Below, piece by piece: positions 964 to 58,075 of a stretch of 64,000 nt of DNA. This stretch comes from Mobula hypostoma (taxonomy: Eukaryota), in the NCBI RefSeq assembly GCF_963921235.1, contig NC_086108.1, forward strand, positions 14,942,001 through 15,006,000, read 5' to 3'. A program made the translations under genes and the position numbers. A model generated the notes under the pieces. That model was not told the origin of the DNA. It saw only the letters and a program-made list of their open reading frames with translations, and ran no database searches. Numbering within the stretch: the stretch's first letter is position 1; every line of letters begins with the position of its first letter.

Positions 964-1361
964 AAACGCAAACATGAGGAAATCTACAGATGCTGGAAGT
1001 TCAAGTAACACGCACAAAATGCTGGTGGAACACAGCAGGCCAGGCAGCATCTATAGGAAGAAGTACAGTCGACATTTCGAGCCAAGACACTTCATCAGGA
1101 CTAACTGAAAGAAGAGATAGTAAGAGATTTGAAAGTGGGAGGGGGAGGGGGAGATCGGAAATGATAGGAGAAGACAAGGGGGGTTGTGATAGAGCTAAGA
1201 GCTGGAAAGTTGATTGGCAAAAGGGATAAAAGGCTGGAGAAGGGAGAGGATCACGGGACGGGAGGCCTAGGGAGAAAGAAAGGGGGAAGGGTGTACTAGA
1301 GGAAGATGGAGAGCAGGTAAGGAGTTATTGTGAGAGGGATAGAGAGAGAAAAAAAAGGGAA

Positions 1362-1392
<31 letters not shown>

Positions 1393-2118
1393 GGGATGGG
1401 GTAAGAAGGGGAGGAGGGGCATTAACGGAAGTTAGAGAAATCAACATTCATGCCATCAGGTTGGAAGCTATGCAGACGGAATATAAGGTATTGTTCCTCC
1501 AACCTGAGCGTGGCTGGTGTGATATACTGCGGTCGGTGCTCCTGATGCGGCCTTCTATATATTGGCAAGACCTGACGCAGACTGGGAGATCGTTTCGCTG
1601 AACACCTACACTCTGTCCGCCAGAGAAAGCAGGATCTCCCAGTGGCCACACATTTTAATTCCACGTCCCATTCACATTCTGACATATCTATCCAGAGCCT
1701 CCTCTACTGTAAAGATGAAGCCACACTCAGGTTGGAGGAACAACACCTTATATTCCATCTGGGTAGCCTCCAACCTGATGGCATGAACATGGATTTCTCT
1801 AACTTCCGTTAATACCCCTCCTCCCCTTCTTACCCCATCTCATGTTGCTTGCTCTCCATCTTCCACTGGTGCTCCCCTCCCCCTTTCTTTCTCCCTAGGC
1901 CTCCCGTCCCATGATCCACTCCCTTCTCCAGCCTTGTATCCCTTTTGCCAATCAACTTTCCAGCTCTTAGCTCCATCCCTGCCCCTCCTGTCTTCTCCTA
2001 TCATTTCCGATCTCCCCCTCCCCCTCCCACTTTCAAATCTCTTACTAGCTCTTCTTTCAGTTAGTCCTGATGAAGGGTCTTGGCCCGAAACGTTGACTGT
2101 ACCTCTTCCTCTAGATGC
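964..2118. mobile_element. Fold-back Penelope-like element (minus-strand 3' arm 964-1515 joined to plus-strand GIY-YIG/3' arm ~1512-2118)
   Basis: Plus arm encodes decayed VIYC..C..C.LLYIG...EHL...ATHFN...QPDGMN GIY-YIG sequence; left arm is its reverse complement. Perfect 15-bp TSD AGGTTGGTAGTTTAA at 949-963 and 2119-2133. Confidence 0.92.
2063..2098 (+). ncRNA. Minimal type I hammerhead ribozyme motif (Penelope-associated)
   Basis: AGTC-CTGATGA-A-GGGTCTTGGCCC-GAAAC-GTT-GACT: stem I AGTC/GACT, CUGANGA and GAAA cores, stem II GGG/CCC, loopless palindromic stem III AACGTT, predicted cut after 2094. Confidence 0.75.
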
Positions 2119-2279
2119 AGGTTGGTAGTTTAATTGGCCAAGTTACCTCTGGTATGTGGGTGAGGGTAAGAATCTGAGGGGAGATGATGGGCATGTGAGG
2201 AGAATGGTGCAGGCCTATAGGTCTCATCAACAGCCTCCAAGAGGAAGGTGGGACACAGCTCATGAGAGATAACTTGCTC

Positions 2280-2850
2280 TTCATCCACCCACACCCCCCT
2301 TACGTTCCTCACCATCCCTCTCACTTCACACTAACTCACCCCTCCCCTCTCCCTCTTCTCTCCCCTCTGTACCCCTCCACCACTCACTCATCCTCACCTC
2401 CACCTTCTGTCTCTCTCCTCCCCCATCCATGCATTCTCCTCTCCATATCCTCACCACCCTATTCCTCCTCTCCACCGTCACTCCTCTTCCTCTTATCATC
2501 TCTCTCTTCCTTTCCTTCCCTCTTTTCACCTCTCACCCTCACTCACCTCTCCTTTACCCCCTCACCCTCCCCTCCACCTTTCAACATCTCCCTCTTTCCA
2601 CCCCTCCGCTCAACTCAACCCCTCAACTCACCCCTTTTTCCCCTCCATCCCTCCCTCCTCACACATACCCCTTCCTTCCCATTATATCATCACCAGCTTG
2701 TGCCCCCTGACCCCCTCCTCACTCCCCTCCATTCTCTCTTTCCTCTTCTTCCACCTCTCCTGCTCACCCCACTTACAGCCCTTCCCCTTCCACTGGCCTG
2801 CCCTCTCCCCATCACCTCCTTCCTCCCTCCATCACTCTGCACCTTTGCTT
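2280..2850. repeat. Pyrimidine-rich (C/T) low-complexity tract
   Basis: About 570 bp of CCCT/CTCT/CACC-type sequence with very few G on the + strand; ORFs are Pro/Ser/Leu low complexity. Confidence 0.9.
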
Positions 2851-55505: not shown

Positions 55506-56651
55506 TTTTGGTTCCTCTGAGTGCTCCAGTTTTCCCCCACATTCCAAAGACATACGGGTTAGCAGATTAATTGGTCACATGGGTGTAACTGGGCAGGATG
55601 GGCTCACTGGGCTGGAAGGATTGGTTACCATGCTATATCTCCAAATAAAGTAAATATAAGCAGTGACCAGAATTGCACATAATACTCCAAAATTTTATAG
55701 AACTTCAGCATGAAGAGGTAAAGCTCTACAAAGAGAATCAAGACAATACTCGTGTTCTTGTAGCTTGGTGTTCAGCCTGCTGCAGAACCTTGGAGTTGGG
55801 TTTGATTCTGAGACCCTGGCTGACACAAACACCAGCTGCAGTTCCAGTCTCCTGAGGTAGCTCAAGACTGCCACCCTGTGGTGGCTCTAATAATGAACCC
55901 AGCACTTGAAACAGTCGACCAGCCTGTCAACCACACATCACATTGCCAGCTGGACGGTCATGTTATGGAACCTTGAAGAAGTGATTGAACTTTGAGGAGA
56001 CCACCACTCGGACAGATCACTCTATGTTCCCAGCGGAGATTTTAACCCTGAGACCTCTCCATTCCAACTGACCTCCAGCCCATTGTTGTCTAACTCACCT
56101 GGTTGTCCACTTGCCAACTCTCACACAAGGACATCCCTGAGTGTTTCATTGTTTGTGGCTCCTGCTCCAGCAACATCTGATGGACATTTATTTCCAGTCC
56201 CTCCTCTCAAACACATTGAAAACCAGGAGCACTCCCAGCCCTGGTGTCAAACATTCTAAGCCTGACTTGATGGGCTGAATAGCCTAATTCTGTCTCAATG
56301 CTTTACGGACTTAATATCTTATTTCACATCATACCAATGCTGCCAGCCCTGTCTTTACCAGCTAGGGTTTCATTTTCTGGAGCTGCTTCTCCAAAACACT
56401 TCTCTTTTCCCACTTTTCCCCAACTTTAAAACAACTTATAGCTATATATCACTTTAGTAAAGACTCATTCATTTCCCTCCACAGATTCTGAACAACCTAC
56501 TGAGTTTCTCTGGGTTTTTGATTCAAATTCCAGCACCTGCATTCTCTTATGCCTTCATTTATAAGAAAAGTGTTAAGCTCTTTTTCAGGCAACACACATC
56601 AAAGTTGCTGGTGAACGCAGCAGGCCAAGCAGCATCTGTAGGAAGAAGTGC

Positions 56652-56687
56652 AGTCGACGTTTCAGGCCGAGACCCTTCGTCAGGACT
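56652..56687 (-). ncRNA. Minimal hammerhead ribozyme motif, intact core
   Basis: Reverse complement AGTC-CTGACGA-AGGGTCTCGGCCT-GAAAC-GTC-GACT. Confidence 0.78.
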
Positions 56688-58039
56688 AACTGAAGGAAGA
56701 GTGAGTAAGGGATTTGAAAGTTGGAGGGGGAGGGGGAGATCCAAAATGATAGGAGAAGATAGGAGGGGGAGGGATAGAGCCAAGAGCTGGACAGGTGATA
56801 GGCAAAAGGGGATACAAGAGGATCATGGGACAGGAGGTCCGGGAAGAAAGACAAGGGGGGGGGGAACCCGGAGGATGGGCAAGAGGTATATTCAGAGGGA
56901 CAGAGGGAGAAAAAGGAGAGTGAGAGAAAGAATGTGTGCATAAAAATAAGTAACAGATGGGGTACGAGGGGGAGGTGGGGCCTTAGCGGAAGTTAGAGAA
57001 GTCGATGTTCATGCCATCAGGTCGGAGGCTACCCAGACGGAATATAAGGTGTTGTTCCTCCAACTTGAGTGTGGCTTCATCTTTACAGTAGAGGAGGCCG
57101 TGGATAGACATGTCAGAATGGGAATGGGATGTGGAATTAAAATGTGTGGCCACTGGGAGATCCTGCTTTCTCTGGCGGACAGAGCGTAGATGTTCAGCAA
57201 AGCGGTCTCCCAGTCTGCGTCGGGTCTCGCCAATATATAAAAGGCCACATCGGGAGCACCGGACGCAGTATATCACCCCAGTCGACTCACAGGTGAAGTG
57301 TTGCCTCACCTGGAAGGACTGTTTGGGGCCCTGAATGGTGGTAAGGGAGGAAGTGTAAGGGCATGTGTAGCACTTGTTCCGCTTACCACCATTCAGGGCC
57401 CCAAACAGTCCTTCCCCCAGGTGAGGCAACACTTCACCTGTGAGTCGACTGGGGTGATATACTGCGTCCGGTGCTCCCAATGTGGCCTTTTATATATTGG
57501 CGAGACCCGACGCAGACTGGGAGACCGCTTTGCTGAACATCTACGCTCTGTCCGCCAGAGAAAGCAGGATCTCCCAGTGGCCACACATTTTAATTCCACA
57601 TCCCATTCCCATTCTGATATGTCTATCCACGGCCTCCTCTACTGTAAAGATGAAGCCACACTCAAGTTGGAGGAATAACACCTTATATTCCGTCTGGGTA
57701 GCCTCCAACCTGATGGCATGAACATCGACTTCTCTAACTTCCGCTAAGGCCCCACCTCCCCCTCGTACCCCATCTGTTACTTATTTTTATGCACACATTC
57801 TTTCTCTCACTCTCCTTTTTCTCCCTCTGTCCCTCTGAATATACCTCTTGCCCATCCTCCGGGTTCCCCCCCCCATCTTTCTTCCCGGACCTCCTGTCCC
57901 ATGATCCTCTCGTATCCCCTTTTGCCTATCACCTGTCCAGCTCTTGGCTCTATCCCTCTCCCTCCTGTCTTCTCCTATCATTTTGGATCTCCCCCTCCCC
58001 TTCCAACTTTTAAATCCCTTACTCACTCTTCCTTCAGTT

Positions 58040-58075
58040 AGTCCTGACGAAGGGTCTCGGCCTGAAACGTCGACT
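58040..58075 (+). ncRNA. Minimal hammerhead ribozyme motif, intact core
   Basis: AGTC-CTGACGA-AGGGTCTCGGCCT-GAAAC-GTC-GACT; predicted cleavage after 58071. Confidence 0.78.

Follow-up and report, generated by a model that had tools for sequence, protein, structure and literature searches.

Introduction

Minimal hammerhead ribozymes have been described in metazoan Penelope-like elements, including Xena, Poseidon and Neptune of fish (Cervera and De la Pena, 2014; PMC4209133). For these elements, cleavage of the RNA, its ligation into a circle and copying over more than one unit have already been proposed (PMC4209133), and the circles were taken up again in a review (PMC6765202). The published minimal hammerheads cleave weakly as dimers (PMC4209133) or only with the element protein (PMC11167929). 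In the anole Poseidon element PAc, both DNA strands are cut and extended, and the hammerhead is weak without the protein (Frangieh et al., 2024; PMC11167929). RNA circles of the related retrozymes have been shown experimentally in axolotl, coral and mussel (PMC7229834; bioRxiv 10.64898/2026.07.22.740005). According to Schostak et al. (PMC2377424), no obvious mechanism is known by which the pseudo-long terminal repeats (pseudo-LTRs) of Penelope elements are re-made. Here we analyzed a stretch of 64,000 nucleotides (nt) from Mobula hypostoma (contig NC_086108.1, positions 14,942,001 to 15,006,000 of the forward strand), hereafter the window, in which a first-pass annotation made from the letters alone had noticed a minimal hammerhead at the 3' end of a Penelope family.

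We found that the motif belongs to the end repeat of a 3.5-kb coding Penelope-like element that is present in very high copy number. Our overall reading, to which we give a probability of about 0.55, is that inserted copies extend across the predicted cut site and that the end-repeat hammerhead likely releases a 3.5-kb RNA, which is ligated to a circle and then copied over more than one turn. The literature already describes the tail, the inverted arms and minimal hammerheads in Penelope elements of fish; the motif is expected biology, and the value of the present case lies in its scale. Our literature search, which left Lunse et al. (2017) and some supplements that could hold the family uncovered, found no paper on Penelope hammerheads of cartilaginous fish, and a search by terms in two supplementary files of PMC4209133 gave no shark or ray entry. 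Further, no paper was found in this search in which regeneration of the pseudo-LTR was tested by comparison of the repeats.

The hammerhead motif and its element

Positions are counted from the first base of stem I as 0 (41966 in the reference copy), which puts the predicted cut after +31. The motif contains the conserved core CUGANGA, GAAA and an NUH triplet. Stem I joins the 5' and 3' ends by 4 base pairs (bp) plus one U-G, and stem II consists of 4 bp after one unpaired A, the extra base between 9 and 10.1, with 93% of the aligned cells paired. The loopless stem III palindrome, which would permit pairing as a dimer, is ACGU here and in four related families.

Among metagenome sequences we collected 25 loci with related endonucleases (30-52% amino acid (aa) identity), which provided 17 endonuclease ends. 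A core with at most one mismatch lay about 90-140 nt downstream in 12 of the 17 (30-47% aa identity; 11 found by scan and one, L217, by eye), and the remaining five ends were cut short, deleted or incomplete. Stem I reads AGUC/GACU in the ray element and GCU/AGC, ACA/UGU, GCCA/UGGC and CUCA/UGAG in the relatives, so that five different complementary sequences occupy the same place, and in each of the four stem I pairs both partners differ between families. In an alignment of 15 rows from about five families, 86.7% of the stem cells were paired, compared with 73.5% in shuffles and 18-44% in slid registers; these rows are related to one another, and the percentages express no probability. Further, all core positions were retained from old to young subfamilies. 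A comparison of regional identity among old copies was set aside, as truncated young copies were mixed into that class. The first-pass annotation had proposed that the motif is a type I hammerhead of minimal form, that its palindromic stem III has no loop and that it belongs to a Penelope-like element, a proposal that was to fall if dimers did not cleave and if core and stems showed neither excess conservation nor covariation. The anatomy and the covariation found across distant families bear out the proposal, and its comparative ground for rejection does not apply.

Several observations weigh against a strongly active ribozyme. Pair 10.1-11.1 is G-U in 38 of 50 young copies and G-C in only 12, whereas older subfamilies and most relatives have G-C. 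The predicted monomer prefers an inactive rod (-11.0 kcal/mol) to stems I and II (-7.0 kcal/mol), and the predicted dimer an inactive fold (-30.3 kcal/mol) to the hammerhead (-11.5 kcal/mol), in a folding model that does not score the catalytic core. In five window copies folded with 30 nt upstream and 100 nt downstream, the probability of stem I was 0.00-0.13, and in the predicted inactive folds an upstream hairpin captures the CUGA core. Excess conservation within the genome was weak (one site variable at lineage level among the 36 of the motif, compared with seven among 46 in the flanks). The G-U pair and the predicted inactive folds suit an account in which the motif derives from a hammerhead but is catalytically dead, and is kept as part of a protein-bound structure or owing to a recent burst of copies; in a 2026 preprint, eight of nine Xenopus dimer constructs were likewise reported as uncleaved. 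Such an account is improbable, however, because the core positions are kept from old to young subfamilies and in relatives at 30-47% aa identity. Moreover, the monomer of one relative, L219, also takes the same kind of inactive rod as its predicted free minimum-energy fold, so such folds alone do not mark decay. We consider it highly probable that this is a real hammerhead motif, and the element's hammerhead likely cuts only as a pair, likely with help from a protein.

The motif sits about 295 nt past the stop of an open reading frame (ORF) with a GIY-YIG endonuclease. In a tandem array the unit measured 3,515 and 3,513 nt from hammerhead to hammerhead, and 3,503-3,516 nt overall. The ORF of the next unit opens at +89, with a likely ATG at +170, about 140 nt beyond the cut. 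With one ORF stopping upstream and the next beginning downstream, the hammerhead closes one unit at its 3' end and also serves as leader to the unit that follows. The assignment to a Penelope-like element stood, but the motif is not simply a 3' end; it lies in a pseudo-LTR that leads into the next coding region.

As in endonuclease-positive Penelope-like elements, a single ORF carries a reverse transcriptase (RT) together with a GIY-YIG domain at its C terminus, and the insertions show the Penelope anatomy of partial tandem pseudo-LTRs, an inverted 5'-truncated arm, a 30-40-bp tail and a target duplication. An 816-aa open frame elsewhere in the genome matched RVT_1 and GIY-YIG, both below the Pfam curated cut-offs, and ORFs of 1,039-1,043 codons were present in 14 of 39 fetched loci. 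The closest named relatives of the ORF were from stingray (78% aa) and sharks (68-72%). A CX4CX2C linker is found in the window ORF and in locus L041. A CX2-5CxxC linker before GIY-YIG is common to Neptune and Nematis and absent in Penelope and Poseidon (PMC8557442), which, as judged from the sequence, places the predicted protein with Neptune or Nematis and not with Poseidon. Of the two we prefer Neptune, since reports from vertebrates are of Neptune and Poseidon. The element lacks the make-up of a non-LTR retrozyme, namely short non-coding tandem repeats with one hammerhead per unit, since its unit is 3.5 kb long and coding and its short copies are 5'-truncated ends. A separate family of short interspersed elements or retrozymes was rejected, since the short copies grade into long ones.

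In the genome (3.48 Gb), a 31-nt core of the motif had 53,768 exact matches (control, 0), a looser descriptor 83,695 (control, 1) and a pattern for the tail 87,578. A structural descriptor gave no match in any of three shuffles of the 0.96 Mb of fetched DNA, and no second hammerhead family was found in these 0.96 Mb. The Rfam search that the first-pass annotation had recommended does not detect the motif: there was no hammerhead family among the 10 window matches at E<=5. Matches to microRNA families at 57320-57407, below their gathering thresholds, were rejected, as they fall on a near-perfect hairpin at the junction of an inverted Penelope pair. For annotation this means that Rfam overlooks the motif and labels the fold-back junction as microRNA.

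Some further features of the element and its relatives were noted. Locus L045 (G000:C12:173.17-173.19 Mb) holds an array of two full 3.5-kb units and a 0.9-kb partial unit, with an identical frameshift before the endonuclease in both full units. L168/L169 (G000:C1:61.74 Mb) contains a tandem repetition of a 31-nt segment whose first base is exactly +32. In the metagenome loci L220 (near 2038, minus strand) and L223 (near 4825, minus, and 5035, plus), hammerheads with a longer palindromic stem III (CAGCUG or CAUG) occur that are not directly behind the matched endonuclease. Finally, at 41940-41967(+) and in all young copies, positions -25 to +1 contain a branch-point-like word, a pyrimidine tract and two AG; these signals resemble a splice acceptor and end at the 5' edge of stem I. 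The intron of Drosophila virilis Penelope ends at the same place (PMC4209133). No GT-AG joint at the acceptor-like site was seen among the 15 joints listed for each of two contig sets, which hold 70 and 10 more; such contig joints carry no evidence on expression or splicing of the element. Nor did the two sets show a position at which a large number of molecules started or stopped, something that contigs would not reveal in any case.

Ends of inserted copies

The 3' ends of 256 young copies were bimodal, at about +97 and +133, that is, about 65 and 100 nt beyond the cut. Of these copies, 133 ended at or close to +125 to +159 and most others at +85 to +106; single-base peaks were at +133 (56 copies) and +98 (16), and the earliest end was at +46. 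None of the young copies ended at the cut, and three alignments that ended between +20 and +39 all did so at +36, beside other arms. The cut was spanned by 87 of 100 tail-anchored copies. The 5' ends in this sample, a biased one made of the first tail-pattern matches in the first 3.3 Mb of contig C1, fell at -10 to +9 in 25 copies, at -20 to +19 in 35 and at +30 to +34 in four. The peak at the front edge of the ribozyme persisted when the copies lacking an inverted partner were taken alone (10 of 36, at -1 to +10). It may mark the start of the RNA, and pausing of the enzyme would fit too.

In 64 of 67 inverted, head-to-head pairs one arm was long-tailed and the other short-tailed, where about half would be expected, and 61 of the 67 shared a flank of at least 7 bp. 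About half of these pairs came from loci chosen for 5' ends near the cut. In 20 of the 64 pairs the short-tailed arm reached further 5', so that the arms were not nested. Simple fold-back is excluded for these non-nested pairs, which need two priming events, and was rejected as the general origin of inverted pairs.

The first-pass annotation had suggested that self-cleavage at GUC defines the RNA ends of the family. Taken literally, a cleaved linear RNA would serve as template, the element would end at GUC, and copies would begin or end at the cut. This fails for inserted DNA, in which the 3' ends lie well past the cut and none of 30 full-length copies starts there. There may be a weak excess of 5' starts at the cut: a start at +32 had 307 genome matches and a +40 control 63, the latter mostly 1-nt deletions; nine of 30 loci with a +32 start have an arm whose first base is precisely +32, linked by way of stem I to an arm beginning at 0; and the four unselected copies above began at +30 to +34. 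However, such starts amount to a few per cent at most of the tail-bearing copies, and 25 of the 30 loci are inverted junctions in which stem I supplies microhomology. Further, a tally by eye of 100 listed matches (12 rows with indels dropped) gave about nine starts at +32, compared with 11 at +26, 10 at +29, 11 at +38 and 12 that were ACGU-folded, with no dominant peak. The literal version is already largely refuted for DNA copies, and we regard it as very unlikely indeed. The data rule out cleavage as the source of the insertion ends, which are very probably set by internal priming. The suggestion may nevertheless be right for RNA, if a monomer is ligated again to form a circle.

Repeats of full-length copies

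A first look at the genome gave 2,638 candidate full-length copies. Among 30 copies with an ORF start, a biased sample of the best-scoring ones, 25 spanned the upstream cut, 23 of them with over 50 nt to spare and the longest with over 1.3 kb; the other five began at +49 to +166 and none at +32. Full-length insertions thus exceed one 3.5-kb unit. Where the flanks were unique, a single target duplication of at least 10 bp encloses the whole insertion in nine of 13 elements, which argues that the more-than-unit structure arose in one event. The partial tandems do not usually stem from a second copy homing into an old repeat, an origin that we rejected: the expected direct upstream stub was seen at only one of 30 loci, beside one small local duplication.

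We compared the 5' and 3' repeats of single elements. From the 39 fetched loci, 15 that lacked one detectable hammerhead were dropped, and two elements whose 5' repeat starts at 0 or +2 were excluded from the comparisons of 22 elements. An element's own repeats diverged by 0.83%, compared with 1.85% between elements (19 elements), and by 0.60% where 0.88% would be expected from the age of the copies alone (22 elements). Minor alleles of a lineage were found in both repeats 38 times and in one only nine times. Further, 11 private variants, that is, variants unique to one element within the 22 compared, were present in both repeats, across eight of the elements. These comparisons show that the two repeats of an insertion go back to one recent sequence; the repeat is usually re-made from a single template.

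Some repeat pairs were discordant at lineage sites, L283 at two sites and L269 and L279 at a common one (-732); a pure circle does not predict such pairs. Between -760 and -700 of the 3' repeats of L269 and L279, T-versus-A differences between the repeats were clustered (five and two, with one site shared).

The same data can be read without any role of cleavage in copying. The hammerhead would be real, the template an uncut linear RNA, and the 5' repeat re-made by homologous strand transfer from the 5' end of the RNA to the 3' repeat, similar to retroviral strong-stop transfer, or evened out later through gene conversion across the 3.5 kb that separate the repeats; the ribozyme would then act on RNA level or translation, or ride along. 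This reading agrees with the large share of copies that span the cut, with a 5' peak at the front edge and not at +32, with the two of 30 full-length copies that start at 0 and +2 and with the discordant pairs. It agrees also with PAc, in which ribozyme mutants insert normally in vitro (PMC11167929). On the other hand, strand transfer would require a second transfer in 23 of the 30 full-length copies, while 35 of 100 ordinary copies stop at -20 to +19, and plain inheritance of two repeats from a linear master leaves the private variants in both repeats unexplained. An uncut template fits nearly as well as the circle, and we give it a sizeable minority share of the probability.

Copies in the window

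The window was scanned without gaps with the 36-nt pattern of the first-pass annotation, and mismatches were counted. The features are as follows, with the extent of each copy in motif numbering.

41966..42001, plus strand: intact minimal hammerhead; stem I AGUC/GACU, core CUGACGA, one unpaired A, 4-bp stem II closed by G-U, GAAA, palindromic ACGU; predicted cut after 41997
58040..58075, plus strand: inverted pair, long-tailed arm, with an intact minimal hammerhead whose cut is predicted after 58071
56652..56687, minus strand: short-tailed arm of the inverted pair of 58040, likewise with an intact minimal hammerhead
13800..13835, minus strand: short fold-back insertion, long-tailed arm, with an intact minimal hammerhead
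13855..13880, plus strand: 3' part of a hammerhead from motif position +10, in the short-tailed arm (partner of 13800)
2063..2098, plus strand: hammerhead with intact core, older subfamily, with a G-C closing pair and the triplet GUU
1067..1102, minus strand: mutated hammerhead with three changes, which fall in stem II and in the ACGU palindrome; forms a pair with the arm of 2063
17109..17144, plus strand: hammerhead with core G8>A at 17118
11715..11750, plus strand: decayed hammerhead, old subfamily
17712..17747, minus strand: decayed hammerhead, old subfamily
32056..32091, plus strand: decayed hammerhead, old subfamily
3322..3440, minus strand: strongly decayed repeat end; downstream part recognisable, core not intact
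37639..37750, plus strand: decayed repeat end with the 3' half of the motif and the tail
38953..39000, plus strand: strongly decayed motif
14102..14640, plus strand: fragment of an older subfamily; endonuclease end (63% aa identity), then a decayed hammerhead at 14540-14575
40964..42064, plus strand: 5'-truncated solo copy of the element, -1000 to +98
41151..41672, plus strand: C-terminal piece of the ORF with CX4CX2C linker and GIY-YIG (PF01541, E 3.6e-5, above the curated cut-off)
16119..17210, plus strand: 5'-truncated solo copy, -989 to +101; target duplication of about 13 bp with one mismatch
56584..58174: head-to-head insertion with arms 56584-57386 (minus, to +103) and 57382-58174 (plus, to +134); 15-bp target duplication
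13699..13936: short insertion of two head-to-head arms, one spanning -24 to about +135 and the other +10 to +91; target duplication of 15 bp
964..2125: older insertion of two head-to-head arms, one spanning -389 to +139 and the other -607 to about +55; target duplication of about 15 bp

All five motifs that had been called intact (2063, 13800, 41966, 56652 and 58040) showed no mismatch, and the two called mutated had one (17109, where base 17118 is A) and three (1067). The proposed RNA ends 41997 and 58071 are the C of GUC. Of the decayed versions, those at 11715, 14540, 17712 and 32056 were recovered with 6-11 mismatches; what can be recognised near 3408, 37640 and 38955 is mainly the downstream part. 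The truncated hammerhead at 13855-13880 was absent from the earlier list. The motif had been reported on both strands, and the pairs 1067/2063, 13800/13855 and 56652/58040 are indeed real; they largely reflect three head-to-head insertions with one target duplication each. Every element copy in the window is 5'-truncated. The copies at 41966 and 58040, which had been put forward for mapping of RNA ends, are poor targets because they are truncated and have one same-sense hammerhead each.

Two more strongly decayed repeat ends, also unlisted earlier, lie at 21574-21730 and at about 46038(+), and the former may be an old fold-back pair. Among other repeats, 26532-28650(+) is a broken gypsy-type LTR retrotransposon with RT (RVT_1, E 4.6e-36) and integrase zinc-binding (E 3.7e-16) matches in separate frames. 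Fragments similar to the RT of long interspersed nuclear elements lie at 14836-15635, 25585-25974, 54496-55056, 59613-62604, 22404-22838, 34028-34525 and 48437-48847, with an RVT_1 match backing 61987-62604; we take them to be CR1/L2-like.

A possible replication cycle

We favour two templates: a linear RNA would give rise to stubs, and a cut and ligated 3.5-kb circle to long and more-than-unit copies. In step (a), the endonuclease would make a staggered cut, and each DNA end would prime reverse transcription at one of two internal sites, +97 or +133, in the way that in vitro work showed for the anole element. In step (b), copying of a linear transcript that starts near the front edge of the ribozyme would yield stubs of 90-160 bp. 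In step (c), the two hammerheads of a partial-tandem master would pair through ACGU and stem I and cut, and the monomer would be ligated. In step (d), copying over the restored junction would produce long 5'-truncated copies and re-make the 5' repeat. We hold steps (c) and (d), the cutting, ligation and recopying, at slightly below an even chance. A circle would also place ORF sequence behind the priming sites, where the terminal repeat of a linear RNA would have none; the anole enzyme needs ORF sequence in this position (PMC11167929).

The circle has to be set against several further points that count in the other direction. Anole mutants with a dead ribozyme still insert in vitro, and no RNA-seq reads end at the cut there (PMC11167929). 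Naiad elements proliferate without canonical hammerheads (PMC8557442). Our samples were weighted to young subfamilies, and the biased choice of full-length copies, of copies for 5' ends and of inverted pairs given above belongs on the same side, as do the discordant repeat pairs.

The data leave three candidates: a circle, strand transfer and gene conversion. That the genome records a whole Penelope cycle, in which dimeric cleavage and ligation turn the transcript of a partial-tandem master into a 3.5-kb circle, an RT dimer primes at +97 on one end of the DNA and at +133 on the other, the pseudo-LTR is re-made in each generation and uncut linear RNA leads to stubs only, is a tentative proposal that falls somewhat short of even odds. 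If true, this cycle would explain how the pseudo-LTR is regenerated and would give the hammerhead an essential role, and the Mobula genome, with about 24 motifs per Mb, would be among the most hammerhead-dense of vertebrates.

Comparison with known systems

The motif shares its architecture with the minimal hammerheads of PMC4209133. Both are of type I with a short stem I (4-5 bp here), an extra unpaired base between 9 and 10.1, a palindromic 15.2-16.2 and no loop 3, and both occur in the two pseudo-LTRs about 3 kb apart, mostly as solo motifs, and in close opposite-strand pairs. In contrast, the ray genome holds at least 83,695 matches, compared with about 9,000 in Xenopus tropicalis and about 4,000 in coelacanth, sequence heterogeneity is low, and the dominant allele at 10.1-11.1 is G-U and not G-C.

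Similar to anole PAc (PMC11167929), two probable internal RT starts past the cut define the 30-40-bp tail, and the template is continuous across the cut. However, PAc belongs to the Poseidon clade and its ORF starts inside the hammerhead, whereas the ray element has a Neptune-type linker and a likely ATG about 140 nt past the cut. Further, in that study the two strands did not differ in the start used, whereas 64 of 67 inverted pairs here use one start per end. The anatomy is the same as that of inverted pseudo-LTR insertions with a one-sided 30-40-bp tail and a target duplication (PMC3846280, PMC8557442). Arkhipova et al. (2013; PMC3846280) took the palindromes at the junctions as self-priming, whereas 20 of 64 pairs here are not nested.

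Non-LTR retrozymes (PMC7229834; bioRxiv 10.64898/2026.07.22.740005) likewise have a type I hammerhead, derive from Penelope end repeats and act as dimers. Unlike the ray motif, they are non-coding tandem repeats of 170-400 nt with canonical stems; here the hammerhead is part of the end repeat of a coding element that is autonomous and 3.5 kb long. The axolotl, with a much larger genome, has 126,247 canonical motifs (PMC7229834), and the count in Mobula is lower.

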